Shown: positions 1-39,716 of the stretch, piece after piece
Layout: each line of letters opens with the position of its first letter
Numbering within the stretch: position 1 is the stretch's first letter
Assembly: GCA_045635025.1 (NCBI GenBank)
Contig: JAZRBK010000188.1
Span: forward strand, 1 to 39,716
Reading direction: 5' to 3'
Length of the DNA: 39,716 bases
Source: Candidatus Scatosoma sp.
Lineage (GTDB): Bacteria; Bacillota; Clostridia; Christensenellales; Borkfalkiaceae
Notes under the pieces: model-generated
Seen by the model: the letters and a program-made list of their open reading frames with translations, nothing else
What the model was told of the DNA's origin: nothing
Databases searched by the model: none
Position numbers and translations under genes: made by a program

Positions 1-591
1 GTCATTAGCCAACTGTTCAGCCTGCGCCGCTTTTTTTTGGTCGTAGGCTTTCTTTTGGTCGATGATGTATTGCGCTTGCTCCTGCGTTAAGTCCTCCAAC
101 TTGTCAACGCCGAACTTGCGGAGCGTGTTTTCCACCTTTACGCCGAGCACGGTAAATTCCGCCTTTTGCGCCTCCGTGATTTTCGGTGCGGGAGCATTCG
201 CCTCCGCTTCGGGCAAGTCCTCCCCTGCGTAAATATACAAGCCAAGTCCGTGGCGAGCGCAAGCCTTTGTCAGCGACCTTTGAATTGCCTTGTTCACATC
301 AAAGGAATTGACCTCCTCCAAAGGAATTGGCATATTCTTGCTGTTCATAACGGGCAAATACTCGATATGCTCCAAGCCCTCAATGGTAACGCCCGTCTTT
401 ACCCAACAAGTCCTGCCGTCCGTGTGGTAGTTCAACCCCGCCGCGTTCTCATAAATCGTGTAAGTCGCGTTCGGAAACGCCTTTTTTACCTCGCTCCAAG
501 CCCACGCCCACGAAAGATAAGTAAGGTTTCCCTTTTTCTCCGTGTGTTCGTTTACATTGATTTTGCTCAAAACTTCAAAAACATTGTTCAT
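1..591 (-). CDS. Rad52-superfamily single-strand annealing protein (DUF1071/Sak3-like), allele A. The 3' end is cut by the window edge.
   Basis: It is missing from the ORF track because it runs off the edge. The minus-strand ATG is at 589-591, preceded by AAGGGGG plus 8 nt. The translation MNNVFEVLSKINVNEHTEKKGNLTYLSWAWAW... is a close homolog of ORF 38836..39450. I recall the YLSWAWAW motif from DUF1071-type phage SSAPs. Confidence 0.75.
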   Translation of the reverse strand, partial: MNNVFEVLSKINVNEHTEKKGNLTYLSWAWAWSEVKKAFPNATYTIYENAAGLNYHTDGRTCWVKTGVTIEGLEHIEYLPVMNSKNMPIPLEEVNSFDVNKAIQRSLTKACARHGLGLYIYAGEDLPEAEANAPAPKITEAQKAEFTVLGVKVENTLRKFGVDKLEDLTQEQAQYIIDQKKAYDQKKAAQAEQLAND

Positions 592-606
592 TTTTTATTC
601 CCCCTT

Positions 607-1197
607 TTAATAATTCACGGCTTCTTGCCTGTTAATGAAGAAGTGAATACCTGCGGCGCACTCATTCCACCTATCCTCGCAAAAGTCCTTTACCTCTACA
701 ACTCCCCCTACGCGGTAAACAAAATTACTGTCGTACTTGCTTTGCGCTTCTTTGATTTTGGCGGGCGTTCCGTCAATGGTTTGAATGGCAAGCACTTTTG
801 CCTTGTCGCAACGGCACTTGCGCCCCGTAGCCGAACAACGGCGTGCATCCGATAAAATTTCAAGTTCCACGATAACCTCACCGTTTTCGCTATTGCACTT
901 TTTGTAACCGATAAACGAGCCAAAGTCGGGGCAGGCATACGGGATAAAAGGAATATTTTTCGCGCCACGCAAGTCCGCGCCACGCAAGTCCGCGTCACGC
1001 AAGTCCGCGCCACGCAAGTACGCGCCACGCAAGTCCGCGTCACCCAAGTACGCGCCACGCAAGTCCGCGCCACGCAAGTCCGCGCCACGCAAGTCCGCGC
1101 CACGCAAGTACGCGCGCTCGCCACCTTCTTCGGCTCGCGCCCACTTGCAGTGACGCTCCAAAATATCTTTCAGTTCGTCTTTGGTAAAAGTTCTCAT
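607..1197 (-). CDS. Pentapeptide-repeat protein with a Cys-rich C-terminal domain (accessory gene, absent from the right-hand repeat copy)
   Basis: 196-aa ORF with about 11 consecutive A(D/Y)LRG pentapeptides ([17 protein letters not shown]...). The ~110-aa C-terminal domain ends in [17 protein letters not shown] is GGGGGG upstream of the ATG at 1197. Confidence 0.9.
961..1110. repeat. Ten tandem copies of a 15-bp unit (cgcgccacgcaagtc) inside the pentapeptide-repeat gene
   Basis: Units counted directly at 961, 976, 991, ... 1096. Each has 0-2 mismatches. An eleventh, degenerate unit lies at 1111-1125. Confidence 0.95.
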
Positions 1198-1221
1198 TCT
1201 TAAACCCCCCTTGTGTTTTTG

Positions 1222-1236
1222 GGGGCTTTCCGCCCC
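1222..1236 (-). promoter_or_regulatory. Conserved 5'-UTR stem-loop (RNA GGGGC-GGAAA-GCCCC)
   Basis: The identical 15-mer also occurs at 32675..32689 and 39467..39481. Each copy sits just downstream of a predicted -10 and upstream of an RBS. Confidence 0.5.
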
Positions 1237-1248
1237 TTTGATACCTCT

Positions 1249-1277
1249 ATTGTATCACACTTTCACCGCATTGTCAA
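1249..1277 (-). promoter_or_regulatory. Sigma-70/SigA-type promoter: TTGACA, 17-nt spacer, TACAAT with TGn extension
   Basis: On the minus strand, TTGACA is at 1277-1272 and TACAAT at 1254-1249, with exactly 17 nt between. An A-rich UP-like tract lies upstream at 1280-1305. Confidence 0.7.
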
Positions 1278-1304: not shown

Positions 1305-1340
1305 TTTCTCTAAAACAATAACCCCCTTATAGGGGGTTAT
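1305..1340 (-). terminator. Rho-independent terminator after gene 1342..1737
   Basis: A 10-bp stem ATAACCCCCT/AGGGGGTTAT (1318-1340) with a 3-nt loop is followed on the minus strand by TGTTTTAG. Confidence 0.6.
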
Positions 1341-3480: not shown

Positions 3481-3640
3481 TGTTCATTTCCTCCTCATAT
3501 ACCGCTTTGATTTCCTCAAAGGTAAGGCTTTCTTTGTGTTCCGTGTTCATTTTCCTTAACAGCGCGCCATAAAGCCGCATTTTGCCCCTCTCTATTCCGT
3601 TCGCAATGGCTTTGTCAAAAGTTTCTTCAACAATGCTCAT
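3461..3640 (-). CDS. Small hypothetical protein (59 aa, MSIVEETFDKAIANGIERGK...)
   Basis: Hand-translated. It has an ATGA overlap with the stop of 3637..3897 and fills an otherwise empty gap. Confidence 0.6.
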   Translation of the reverse strand: MSIVEETFDKAIANGIERGKMRLYGALLRKMNTEHKESLTFEEIKAVYEEEMNNARKES

Positions 3641-3897
3641 TCGTCCTTATCCCCCTTTATTGTTTTGTCGATAATGTCCTGCAACTGCGAGGGGACGCTT
3701 TTGCTGTTCTCCCCGAACGCCGTGCCGTCATTTATTGCCTTTGTCAAAACTTCCTTAAAACTCTCCCCAAAGCCGCGCTCCTTTGCGATGTTGTATATCG
3801 CCGTGATAATGCAACTCGTGTCCGCAAACATAAATTCGGGGAAATTGTTGGTAGTTTCAATTTTCGTCATTCCCAATATCGTTGTCACCGCAATCAT
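3637..3897 (-). CDS. Hypothetical protein (86 aa)
   Basis: ORF track; AGGAGG RBS 9 nt upstream of the ATG at 3897. Confidence 0.75.
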   Translation of the reverse strand: MIAVTTILGMTKIETTNNFPEFMFADTSCIITAIYNIAKERGFGESFKEVLTKAINDGTAFGENSKSVPSQLQDIIDKTIKGDKDE

Positions 3898-4027
3898 CGT
3901 CCTTTTCCTCCTGCTCGGTCTTTTTCTTCTTTTTAATTCGCCACTTGATAAATAGGTATGTCACATACGCAAACCAAGCCGCCAACAGTAACAAGCCGCC
4001 GAGCGTCCACGCCTGTTTTTCCGTCAT
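3857..4027 (-). CDS. Small single-pass membrane protein (56 aa, MTEKQAWTLGGLLLLAAWFAYVTYLFIKW...)
   Basis: Hand-translated. It has an ATGA overlap with the stop of 4024..4347, and a hydrophobic helix is followed by a KKKKK/acidic tail. Confidence 0.5.
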   Translation of the reverse strand: MTEKQAWTLGGLLLLAAWFAYVTYLFIKWRIKKKKKTEQEEKDDDCGDNDIGNDEN

Positions 4028-4347
4028 AGTTCCTCCACGCCGAACTCGTTTTCTATATCTTCAAAGATACACGGGTCAAATGTCACGATAGGGCTGTGCG
4101 GAGAAGATGGATAATCATATCCAAAATGTCCGTTCTCCTTAAGAAAATCAATTATTTTCTTCACCGTTTCCTTTCGTACTTCGTCGGCTTTGCGATAACC
4201 TGCGTCAACCAAAACACCCAAATGGCACTCGTCACAATGCAAAGCACATTCCGTATGGGAAAAATGGTCACAAAGATTTTGTTCTCTAAATTCCGATATG
4301 GTATCTTCCATACCTTTTATGCGTTTATCCCTTTCTTGTTCAGTCAT
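4024..4347 (-). CDS. Hypothetical Cys/His-rich protein (107 aa) carrying a YRKADEVRKE motif
   Basis: ORF track. The motif and its underlying DNA are shared with 6424..6834. Confidence 0.8.
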   Translation of the reverse strand: MTEQERDKRIKGMEDTISEFREQNLCDHFSHTECALHCDECHLGVLVDAGYRKADEVRKETVKKIIDFLKENGHFGYDYPSSPHSPIVTFDPCIFEDIENEFGVEEL

Positions 4348-37422: not shown

Positions 37423-37893
37423 TTATTCCCCCTTTATAAAATCGTCAACCTTTGCTATGTTCGTTAAACTGTCCGTCAGCAAGCGGATAGACGAACCCAA
37501 TTTTACACTCCTTTCCAAGAGGTCATCGCCCGTCTTGTAGGCAATATCAAAAACCTCTTGTGCCGTAGCGGTTGCGCCTTTATCCCCCCTTTCTTTTAGT
37601 GCTTTTCGCATTTCCGAATACGCGCGAGTAATCTTTTTGGAATATCGCAAACGCTTATGTACGCATTTCCGAACTTCGTCTTCCAACCTTTGAATGTCGT
37701 CATCGTTCTTTATGCAAATCGCTTCATCGCGCGCTACCGTCCCGTATAGTAAACAGTAAATTTTGATGTCAAAAAGCGCATATCTTTCGCGCATAAGTTT
37801 TTCCCGCGTTTTGTATAGCGAAAAATAGTTCCTTTTAAGTGCAGGGTCTTTTATGTCTTCGCCAATGCTTTTGATAACATCAATCTTCGGCAT
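37423..37893 (-). CDS. Hypothetical helical protein (about 156 aa); start at 37893 or 37899
   Basis: The ORF was trimmed because AAGGGGG lies 9 nt before the ATG at 37893. Confidence 0.7.
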   Translation of the reverse strand: MPKIDVIKSIGEDIKDPALKRNYFSLYKTREKLMRERYALFDIKIYCLLYGTVARDEAICIKNDDDIQRLEDEVRKCVHKRLRYSKKITRAYSEMRKALKERGDKGATATAQEVFDIAYKTGDDLLERSVKLGSSIRLLTDSLTNIAKVDDFIKGE

Positions 37894-38836
37894 TTTCATC
37901 TTCCCCCTTGATTTTGATTTCAACGGCGGGCTTTACTTTCGTCACCTTTGAATATTCGCCGTAAACTTGCGGCAATTCTCGGCGCAATTTCGTACTGTCA
38001 ACTGTCACGCGGTCATAGCCCGCTCGGTAGGTCACGCGCACCTTTTCCGTTTCGTAGGAATAAATGCCCTGCCTTTCCATTTCAGCCATAAGAGCGGCGC
38101 GGCACTTTTCGGCGGTTTCCTTTGCCGTCTTTGCCGCCCTCTCGATTTCAACGAGCGCGGTTTCCGCCGCTTCCAAGCGCAAGCGCAAGTCGTTCTCCAC
38201 CACAAGCGCGGGGCGCATATACTTTTCCCCCTTGAACTCGGCGGTGAAAAGTTTTTCGATTTCCGTGTCGGGAATTTTCTCCAATTCCTTGACGGTCAAC
38301 TTCCCGCTTTTCGGGTCGAAGTGCGTGCAAAGAAATTTTTTTGCGCCTTTCCAAACAAACTTCCTATCGTTCACAATGCGCCCATTCATTTGCCGCGCCA
38401 TATAGTCGCCAATGCTCACCTGCCACGCCACATACTCCCTGTTTGCGCTCGCGGTGTTCTTGTGGTCGTCAATAACCCTTTCCCCGCTTTTCAGCACGCC
38501 GAGCAAGTCAATCGTCCCTGCAACAATCATTCCGCCCCAATCCAAAGTCACCATAACTTCGGCGCGCGCCTCTTTAAGGTTTTCGTCCGACCACTTTGCG
38601 AACTCCAAGCCCTGCGGCGTTTCGGGGATATATTCCTTGTCGCGAAAGTTGATATAATTCTCAATGTCCGCGTGGACGATTTTCCCGTTTGAGCGGCTTT
38701 CCTCCAACTTCTCCTCGCTTACAAAGGAAAGGTTGGGGGCAAGTCCGTGCTTTTTCAGCAACTCCGTAATAGAGATACTTGCGATGTCGCCATTTACAAA
38801 ATAGGAATGGGTCTTTGCGTCAAAGTCTATACGCAT
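37880..38836 (-). CDS. PD-(D/E)XK family exonuclease (recombination partner of the SSAP)
   Basis: The N-terminus reads THSYFVNG...SITELLKK. The sequence GKIVHADIE ... GTIDLLGV...VIDDHKNT fits the D...(D/E)xK nuclease motif arrangement. It is TAATG-coupled to the SSAP gene. Confidence 0.65.
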   Translation of the reverse strand: MRIDFDAKTHSYFVNGDIASISITELLKKHGLAPNLSFVSEEKLEESRSNGKIVHADIENYINFRDKEYIPETPQGLEFAKWSDENLKEARAEVMVTLDWGGMIVAGTIDLLGVLKSGERVIDDHKNTASANREYVAWQVSIGDYMARQMNGRIVNDRKFVWKGAKKFLCTHFDPKSGKLTVKELEKIPDTEIEKLFTAEFKGEKYMRPALVVENDLRLRLEAAETALVEIERAAKTAKETAEKCRAALMAEMERQGIYSYETEKVRVTYRAGYDRVTVDSTKLRRELPQVYGEYSKVTKVKPAVEIKIKGEDENAED

Positions 38837-39450
38837 TATTTTTGTCCCTCGCTGTCATTAGCCAACTGTTCAGCCTGCGCCGCTTTTTTTTGGTCGTAGG
38901 CTTTCTTTTGGTCGATGATGTATTGCGCTTGCTCCTGCGTTAAGTCCTCCAACTTATCAACGCCGAACTTGCGGAGCGTGTTTTCCACCTTTACGCCGAG
39001 CGCGGTAAATTCCTTAACCTGCGCCTCCGTGATTTTCGGTGCGGGAGCGTTAGCCTCCGCTTCGGGCAAGTCCTCCCCTGCGTAAACATACAAGCCAAGT
39101 CCGTGGCGAGCGCAAGCCTTTGTCAGCGACCTTTGAATTGCCTTGTTCACATCAAAGGAATTTACCTCCTCCAAAGGAATTGACCTGTTCTTGCTGTTCA
39201 TAACGGGCAAATACTCGATATGCTCCAAGCCCTCGATAGTAACGCCCGTCTTAACCCAACAAGTCTTGCCGTCCGTGTGATAGTTCCAACCCTGCGCGTT
39301 CTCGTAAATCGTGTAAAACGCAGTCGGATAGCGTTTCTTAACTTCCGCCCACGCCCACGCCCAAGAAAGATAGGTCAAACCGCCCTTGTCCTCCGTGTGT
39401 TCGTTCACATTGATATTGTTAAGCGTTTCAAATACCGAAACTTTTTCCAT
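38836..39450 (-). CDS. Rad52-superfamily single-strand annealing protein (DUF1071/Sak3-like), allele B
   Basis: 204 aa with GLTYLSWAWAWAEVKKRYP. It lies upstream of the exonuclease and close to ssb. Confidence 0.7.
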   Translation of the reverse strand: MEKVSVFETLNNINVNEHTEDKGGLTYLSWAWAWAEVKKRYPTAFYTIYENAQGWNYHTDGKTCWVKTGVTIEGLEHIEYLPVMNSKNRSIPLEEVNSFDVNKAIQRSLTKACARHGLGLYVYAGEDLPEAEANAPAPKITEAQVKEFTALGVKVENTLRKFGVDKLEDLTQEQAQYIIDQKKAYDQKKAAQAEQLANDSEGQK

Positions 39451-39493
39451 TAAAATACCCCCTTGTGGGGCTTTCCGCCCCCTTGATACCTCT

Positions 39494-39522
39494 ATTGTAT
39501 CATACTTTCACCGCATTGTCAA
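39494..39522 (-). promoter_or_regulatory. Promoter: TTGACA, 17-nt spacer, TACAAT (copy of the promoter at 1249..1277)
   Basis: On the minus strand, TTGACA is at 39522-39517 and TACAAT at 39499-39494. The UTR hairpin lies at 39467-39481. Confidence 0.7.
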
Positions 39523-39549
39523 CAATTTGCATAAAATTTTTTCAACTTT

Positions 39550-39585
39550 TTTTCTAAAAACAATAACCCCCTGTAAGGGGGTTAT
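39550..39585 (-). terminator. Rho-independent terminator (copy of 1305..1340)
   Basis: The stem ATAACCCCCT/AGGGGGTTAT spans 39563-39585. Confidence 0.6.
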
Positions 39586-39586
39586 G

Positions 39587-39716
39587 TCAGCGTCCTTTAT
39601 TCTTGTTAATCGTCACCACTCGCGCTATTCCGTGCGGGTGGATTTTTTCCTCGCGCGCCTCCTGCGGCAACAGCGTACAATACTGTGAGTAGGTTATCCG
39701 TTCGGTTGGTTGGTAC
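39587..39716 (-). CDS. 3' end of a homolog of gene 1342..1737; 5' end lies outside the window
   Basis: The hand-translated C-terminus ...EEKIHPHGIARVVTINKNKGR* compares with ...EEKIHPHGIARVVTINKNKVR* in the left copy. Confidence 0.75.
   Translation of the reverse strand, partial: YQPTERITYSQYCTLLPQEAREEKIHPHGIARVVTINKNKGR

Follow-up and report, generated by a model that had tools for sequence, protein, structure and literature searches.

The window analysed here is the entire 39,716-nucleotide (nt) contig JAZRBK010000188.1 (Candidatus Scatosoma sp., assembly GCA_045635025.1). Its two ends overlap, so that one phage locus is read twice, and the left copy alone holds an extra gene, located between the hairpin of the 5' untranslated region (UTR) and the gene for a Sak-family single-strand annealing protein (SSAP). 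The extra gene encodes 196 amino acids (aa) and adds a short new member to a protein family that is known but uncharacterised, and which combines N-terminal pentapeptide repeats (PF00805) with a C-terminal DUF5758 domain (PF19062). It is accessory among otherwise near-identical phages, and is the first gene of the early operon. The product is tentatively read as a two-module early effector (probability roughly 0.4), in which DUF5758 would be the working part and the predicted beta-helix of the pentapeptides a variable scaffold, and which would act on the host. The phage itself has a unidirectionally transcribed genome of ~38 kb, derives from metagenomes of ruminant or other guts, and probably infects a member of the Clostridia.

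Two forms of the locus

The two ends of the window were 96% identical between positions 1-300 and 38854-39153, and 93% identical between 1222-1471 and 39467-39716. In the right copy, the hairpin (39467-39481) was followed by ACAAGGGGGTATTTTA-ATG of a 204-aa Sak gene with nothing between; in the left copy the extra gene separated the hairpin from the Sak gene, with a net length difference of 608 nt. The two copies also differed in codons 1-70 of the Sak gene (382-591 vs 39235-39450), which were only 77% identical, while the rest of Sak reached 96% and the UTR 93%. Thus the exchanged patch is the extra gene together with the 5' third of the Sak gene. An earlier reading of the DNA, made from the sequence only, had described a cassette inserted in one allele; the gene was indeed restricted to the left copy, but clean insertion was rejected in favour of mosaic exchange because the adjoining Sak part had diverged as well.

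Because a true terminal repeat would be identical, while the ends here show 93-96% identity and the 608-nt indel, the contig is probably a wrap-around assembly in which two co-occurring variants of a circular or circularly permuted genome of ~38.2-38.9 kb were joined. No source reads were found; the best sequencing runs contained 19-41% of the sampled words, too few for the proportion of each form to be measured in the source sample, and RNA runs, with at most 6% of the sampled words, were uninformative.

Both forms could be recovered from independent metagenome contigs, so the polymorphism is natural. In six contigs, each from a different sample, the upstream gene (P0270, 98% identical) ran directly to the 204-aa Sak gene, and the same arrangement was seen in three further contigs (P0276; L101-L109 for all of them). 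In addition, a 37-kb contig of run X25 (bovine gut metagenome) skipped window positions 565-1233, and a contig of run X26 skipped 565-1223, which brings the gene-less form to at least nine near-identical contigs and two further assemblies. The gene was present at exactly the same junction in L081 and L082, with a protein 82% identical, and also in contigs of runs X1 and X2 and in L191; the more distant L083 and L084 carried it too. Like a moron, the gene is therefore present or absent among otherwise near-identical genomes, as the sequence-only reading had anticipated in calling it accessory; unlike a moron with its own promoter and terminator, it uses the shared early promoter.

In 11 other contigs, the version of the Sak N-terminus was linked to whether the extra gene was present, the recombinase starting with MENVSVFETLNN in the gene-less form and with MNNVFEVLSK in the gene-bearing form. 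The close relative L191 shares the upstream genes and the exonuclease downstream, but there an ERF-family recombinase replaced Sak (3531-4244) and the extra gene was retained. In L083 the direct repeat AAAACAAGGGGGTA, with the ribosome-binding site (RBS) inside it, stands on either side of the extra gene, and the window has just AAGGGGG on both sides. Given this linkage, the Sak/ERF swap and the direct repeat, gain and loss of the gene by homologous exchange between related phages fits the data, with one endpoint probably in the UTR/RBS and a second within the recombinase gene. The indel itself is phage mosaicism of an ordinary kind.

Two other searches for the junction gave no further examples. 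When IMG/VR was surveyed with the Sak protein, 80 loci (50-83% identical) were obtained, none with the gene within 4 kb, and these were too distant to decide the matter. Exact-pattern scans for the promoter and UTR gave no match in viral contigs and 14 in metagenome contigs, all of which were unrelated chance matches.

Position in the early operon

Judged by the list of open reading frames (ORFs), without a gene caller, everything read as a gene in the window lies on the minus strand. The genome is therefore transcribed in one direction, with the promoter at 1277-1249 at the head of the early operon and the extra gene first behind it. This promoter matched the sigma-70 consensus at 11 of 12 positions and was conserved in both window copies and in relatives. 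The hairpin of the 5' UTR was also kept in L081, L083, L101-L109 and L191. The ATG of the extra gene was preceded by AAGGGGGG, with the G-run at 1205-1210, and in both copies the Sak gene is preceded by the same kind of site (AAGGGGG). The left Sak gene begins 15 bases 3' of the stop codon of the extra gene, and no terminator-like site was found on the coding (minus) strand between the two. The gene with its own GGGGGG site, lying proximal to the shared promoter and ahead of the recombination genes, was as first described.

In a minimum-free-energy fold of the 5' UTR (1195-1243, minus strand; -12.6 kcal/mol, z -1.9), the C-run of the 3' arm of the hairpin paired with the GGGGGG RBS. This pairing is an alternative to the GGGGC/GCCCC hairpin and might influence translation of the first gene.

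Architecture of the protein

The protein consists of three parts, namely a short cap helix, a pentapeptide region and a C-terminal DUF5758 domain that is joined to it by a linker. In the cap, residues L9, L13, H16 and W19 were invariant or nearly so. The pentapeptide region holds ten canonical A(D/Y)L(R/G)(G/D) units and one degenerate unit (AKNIP), close to the eleven or so A(D/Y)LRG repeats counted before; the units begin RAYLR, followed by three GADLR, and the last is GAKNI. Membership of the Pentapeptide family (PF00805) was clear, with 78.4 bits against a cut-off of 20.2 over residues ~28-80 (E 2.7e-22). A full-length AlphaFold2 (AF2) model, built with 40 homologues, had a predicted local distance difference test score (pLDDT) of 85 and showed the cap helix at residues 6-20, a beta-helix, and a C-terminal domain that is rich in beta structure. 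The pLDDT was 77-90 for residues 21-70 and 71 for residues 71-80, and linker residues 83-87 were of low confidence. When the full model was compared with the PDB by Foldseek, only pentapeptide proteins were matched, over ~51-54 residues; Np275, Rfr23, MfpA and synthetic solenoids were found with probability 1.0 and a root-mean-square deviation (rmsd) of 0.4-2 Å. A right-handed quadrilateral beta-helix is therefore predicted for the N-terminal part, as had been supposed from the repeats.

At the DNA level the pentapeptides are encoded by a 15-nt tandem repeat (961-1115, 10.3 copies, 92% matches). The differences between units all alter outward-facing residues and none is synonymous, which with ~7 changes is not statistically significant. 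Close relatives were 84-94% identical in the cap and DUF5758, yet had 4, 6, 9 or 11 pentapeptides (assembled copy numbers), and the lengths of homologues step by 5 aa. In one locus (L190, 2385-8316), five tandem paralogues of 213-422 aa had nearly identical caps and C-terminal domains and differed almost solely in pentapeptide number, which was roughly 12 to 55. Tandem arrays of the pentapeptide/DUF5758 gene were also observed in L159, L154, L169 and L147. An apparent stand-alone DUF5758 of 121 aa (P0282), which is the cluster representative for the window protein, was rejected as a gene-call artefact of a scaffold N-gap within the repeat array (L192, 1252-1350).

For the C-terminal part, membership of DUF5758 was equally clear, with 129 bits against a cut-off of 26.9 (E 8.7e-38) and profile positions 3-105 of 105 covered. 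The protein also matched PHROG 7713 and 9562, two families of unknown function. Conservation and architecture were counted over the best 150 representative clusters of 3,976, which are at most 50% identical to one another. Four of the seven Cys in the C-terminal part of the window protein were conserved in nearly all of them, Cys89 in 98%, Cys128 in 100%, Cys130 in 92% and Cys180 in 96%, together with His185 in 98%; R120, Y161, G183 and I184 were invariant, and the remaining three Cys are lineage-specific. DUF5758 ended at the C-terminus, or a few residues from it, in nearly all of these representatives, and the window protein shows both this position and the C...CxC...ECxxGIHFF signature. Since such a Cys/His cluster is conserved in a cytoplasmic protein, a structural metal site is suggested, and Cys89, Cys128, Cys130, Cys180 and His185 most likely hold a metal, probably zinc. 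YkuD-, sortase-, SET- and protease-like catalytic readings of the motif were dropped, as no fold match supports them.

Modelled alone, DUF5758 gave a pLDDT of 90 and a predicted template modelling score of 0.83. Against the PDB, no fold match was returned by Foldseek (best E 0.76), and sequence searches of solved structures gave nothing better than E 1.6 with phmmer and 0.98 with a profile. By contrast with the PDB, 40 viral proteins in BFVD matched the fold at E<1e-3, with template modelling scores of about 0.63-0.83. These came from Mimivirus, Klosneuvirus, Hyperionvirus, Harvfovirus, Pithovirus and several phages, and the fold stood behind MORN, HEAT, RING or pentapeptide modules.

Within Pfam, searched up to E 10, only a weak link to DUF7666 was found, which shares a GIHFF-containing C-terminal segment with DUF5758 at weak E-values. 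DUF7666 genes also adjoined pentapeptide/DUF5758 genes downstream in four IMG/VR loci (L111-L190). DUF7666 and DUF5758 may be distant paralogues.

Distribution and genomic context of the family

The family is large and broad. About 8,000 relatives of the same architecture were found by a word-indexed search, and an exhaustive search with the C-terminal domain gave the 3,976 clusters, which are defined at 50% identity; among the 150 representative clusters, 139 had pentapeptide repeats. At least 553 IMG/VR contigs encode DUF5758, and 144 confirmed stretches were found in bacterial contigs sampled at one genome per species, nearly all of them from metagenome-assembled genomes of gut or rumen Clostridia. 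For cultured phages, 49 records covered at least 80% of the query, and those listed include many Mycobacterium phages of ~75 kb, Ralstonia phage BOESR1 and a Rhizobium phage, where the product is annotated as "pentapeptide repeat protein" or "hypothetical protein". The remark in the sequence-only reading that pentapeptides followed by a GIHFF-type domain recur in phages was therefore correct.

In Mycobacterium phage Toto, the family member gp57 is the third gene of a rightward operon, which starts beside the divergent repressor gene and is read as the early lytic operon; exonuclease and Erf genes are located ~2.3 kb downstream. In the T7-like Ralstonia phage BOESR1, the family gene (HIBIKMCM_00009) is among those upstream of the RNA polymerase gene. 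These proteins share with the window protein the three-part architecture, the Cys/His and GIHFF residues and the early-region location. The window protein is ~40-50% identical to the versions from cultured phages, and with 196 aa it is at the short end of a family whose median is ~245-255 aa.

The two nearest downstream genes were recorded in ~70 IMG/VR loci (135 neighbour genes), and no constant partner gene was found in them. DNA methylases were the commonest annotated neighbours (7 of 135), followed by thymidylate synthase, DUF7666 and DUF551 (four each), with Gp157, DnaB, SSB, Sak, YopX and HNH in smaller numbers. Thus the family lies in the part of phage genomes that holds DNA-metabolism and accessory genes. 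In related phages, cytosine-C5 DNA methylase genes were also observed a few kb upstream of the junction (L083, 2396-4057; L101, 268-858).

The literature searched contained no paper on DUF5758, PF19062 or DUF7666, and no functional work on phage proteins that combine pentapeptides with DUF5758; no assigned function, solved structure or paper for the family was found in the literature and structures covered. The family would be a good experimental target, since it is large, extends over cultured Mycobacterium, Ralstonia and Rhizobium phages and, by fold, over giant viruses, and includes natural near-isogenic phages that differ in carrying the gene, in helix length and in the adjoining recombinase.

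Proposed function and rival explanations

According to the two-module reading, the product of the extra gene would be the first made after infection and would be directed at the host, either for counter-defence or for takeover, while being dispensable for the basic lytic cycle. DUF5758, probably stabilised by the metal, would bind a target shared by many hosts, either a host component or a nucleic acid. The beta-helix would serve as a rigid scaffold or adaptor that changes rapidly and is adjustable in length, evolving through expansion, contraction and point mutation of the 15-nt repeat. The division into two modules is suggested because the cap, the KN(I/V)PFIPY linker and DUF5758 are constant and the beta-helix is variable, and because the same fold occurs on unrelated scaffolds in other viruses. 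Interference with the host is suggested by the first-early-gene position, the dispensability, the presence/absence polymorphism, the paralogue arrays and the enrichment of the family in viruses.

A comparable division of labour exists in E. coli NleL and Salmonella SopA (both with a HECT-like ligase) and in PipB2, where a pentapeptide-type beta-helix likewise serves as scaffold or adaptor for a separate C-terminal functional module; the NleL helix was among the fold matches of the window protein (ranks 32-35). Their C-terminal domains are unrelated to DUF5758, however, and they are secreted bacterial effectors that act in eukaryotic cells. Closer in the C-terminal part are the giant-virus families and the paralogues of Acidovorax phage ACP17, which have the same predicted fold (template modelling scores of 0.7-0.83) behind a repeat scaffold and show paralogue expansion as in L190, although in the giant viruses the scaffolds are mostly MORN, HEAT and RING, the sequence identity is 12-40% and the hosts are eukaryotic. 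In a broader form, DUF5758 would be a pan-viral effector domain on interchangeable scaffolds (pentapeptide, MORN, HEAT, RING) and would define a new class of early host-manipulation or counter-defence proteins, whose scaffold length and surface are tuned by the contingency-like 15-nt repeat and by tandem paralogue arrays; this generalisation is doubtful.

Several points weigh against the two-module reading. Short-read assemblies break or leave N-gaps in the repeat array, so the copy numbers are uncertain, though the unit sequences themselves differ between relatives. The structure, phmmer, profile and Pfam searches linked DUF5758 to nothing of known function, by fold or by sequence, the argument for metal binding is one of conservation, and the literature searched gave no functional evidence for the gene family. 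An early position would also suit a gene that serves phage replication or recombination. In addition, a gap of at least 80 nt upstream of the gene was present in just 28 of 71 IMG/VR loci (by crude gene calls), so the gene is not always the first of its operon.

Among the rival explanations, the one raised by the sequence-only reading is that the beta-helix mimics B-DNA, as in Qnr, MfpA or AlbG, and inhibits or protects a DNA-handling enzyme, which could be host gyrase or topoisomerase IV or belong to a restriction-modification or other DNA-sensing defence. The gene that reading had observed, and its account of it as accessory, early, beta-helical and recurrent, have held; the DNA mimic has not, and is considered unlikely. 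The predicted helix does superpose on MfpA, Np275 and Rfr23, and shares with MfpA, Qnr, AlbG and McbG the right-handed quadrilateral arrangement of A(D/N)LXX repeats (local rmsd 0.4-2 Å over ~50 residues). Those proteins have ~8-9 coils, dimerise through a C-terminal helix and form an anionic DNA-like rod (PMC10886550). The window protein has neither the long helix nor the anionic surface: its 10-11 pentapeptides form ~2.75 coils, close relatives go down to 4-6 pentapeptides, and the repeat region has a net charge of +2 and an isoelectric point (pI) of 9.5, with Asp and Arg alternating on the surface (+1 and pI 7.5 for the whole protein). The charge of the repeat region in homologues ranged from -20 to +7, and therefore acidity is not conserved. 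A 114-residue beta-rich domain (DUF5758) follows the beta-helix, with a predicted terminal helix of just 6 residues.

Against NCBIfam, only sub-threshold pentapeptide matches were obtained, with 31.1 bits for MfpA against a cut-off of 360, 22.1 bits for Qnr against 240, and at most 22 bits for all Qnr subfamilies against 450-500. The conserved part of the family is DUF5758, which is also fused to MORN and HEAT repeats that are not DNA-like. Typical members are longer, with ~20-30 pentapeptides, and could reach Qnr-like dimensions if DUF5758 dimerises. For phage pentapeptide-repeat proteins in general, the fold alone does not justify the labels "gyrase inhibitor" or "DNA mimic".

T7 Ocr and lambda Gam are strongly acidic DNA mimics. 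The extra gene resembles T7 Ocr (gene 0.3) and lambda gam in being dispensable and in standing at, or close to, the start of the early transcription unit, and gam also lies directly 5' of recombinase and exonuclease genes, but there is no relation in sequence or fold and the window protein is not acidic. No mimic of the Ocr, ArdA, Gam or gp5.9 type was matched in the Pfam, PHROG, PDB and BFVD searches by this protein of pI 7.5, and no defence family was matched in PADLOC-DB models up to E 1. The parallel with Ocr is one of position alone, and an anti-defence or topoisomerase role would be plausible from gene position only.

Quite unlikely is a Gam-like partner of the recombinase, which would block the AddAB/RecBCD nuclease of the host and so shield recombination intermediates or the ends of the phage DNA, and would hold the place that gam has upstream of lambda bet-exo. 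The order extra gene, recombinase, exonuclease was found in the window, L083 and L191 with three recombinase versions (two Sak variants and ERF), the Toto exonuclease and Erf genes are not far downstream of gp57, and lambda gam is likewise non-essential. However, Sak was among the two nearest downstream genes in one of the ~70 IMG/VR loci, the gene was absent near all 80 IMG/VR Sak loci, and most close relatives use the same recombination module without it. The protein is also without a DNA-like charge, and the family occurs in giant viruses of eukaryotes, where RecBCD and AddAB are absent.

Of similarly low probability is a neutral or selfish passenger, persisting by hitch-hiking in a recombination-prone junction and by repeat instability. 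It would account for the lack of the gene in most close relatives, for the missing conserved partner gene and for the repeat array being unstable at the DNA level. It fits poorly with a DUF5758 that stays 84-94% identical in close relatives and keeps invariant residues across 150 diverged clusters, with a family of 3,976 clusters, and with a gene that is retained at the head of the early operon and multiplied into arrays in some phages.

It is hardly credible that the one-allele pattern arose as an artefact of assembly, from a chimeric contig end without biological polymorphism: the imperfect overlap of the ends (93-96%), unlike a true terminal repeat, and the lack of source reads among the runs searched would allow such an artefact, but it is largely refuted by the occurrence of both forms as separate contigs in independent samples, each linked to its own recombinase N-terminus.

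Features of the window and the gene next to Sak

The features of both copies of the locus are collected in Table 1.

Table 1. Features of the left and right copies of the locus in the 39,716-nt window
Feature	Position	Strand	Basis
Extra gene, 196-aa pentapeptide-repeat/DUF5758 coding sequence	607..1197	-	ORF list; Pfam PF00805 E 2.7e-22, PF19062 E 8.7e-38; PHROG 7713, 9562
Cap helix, residues 1-27, conserved L..IL..H..W motif	1117..1197	-	AF2 helix at residues 6-20
Pentapeptide region, residues 28-82, predicted quadrilateral beta-helix of ~2.75 coils	952..1116	-	Sequence; Foldseek
Linker KN(I/V)PFIPY and DUF5758, residues 83-196, beta-rich, GIHFF motif	610..951	-	Pfam residues 87-193; AF2
Stop codon of extra gene	607-609	-	
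GGGGGG RBS of extra gene	1205..1210	-	Sequence; 8 nt 5' of ATG
5' UTR hairpin GGGGC-GGAAA-GCCCC	1222..1236	-	Sequence
Early promoter TTGACA-17 nt-TACAAT with TG extension	1249..1277	-	Sigma-70 consensus matches 11/12
Terminator-like hairpin closing the preceding (late-end) 131-aa gene	1318..1340	-	
Sak-family SSAP gene, left copy, runs off window start	1..591	-	SSAP_Sak E 1.1e-42; PHROG 659
RBS of left Sak copy	600-604	-	
Sak gene, right copy, 204 aa, directly 3' of UTR hairpin (gene-less form)	38836..39450	-	
Right-copy RBS (39458-39462), hairpin (39467-39481) and promoter -10 (39494-39499)	39458..39522	-	

After the Sak gene, a gene of 318 aa was found (37880-38836, minus strand). Its N-terminus gave a weak exonuclease match (PHROG 298), and its last ~90 residues matched PHROG 6244 and, weakly, RecE-like and Mu Gam-like families.

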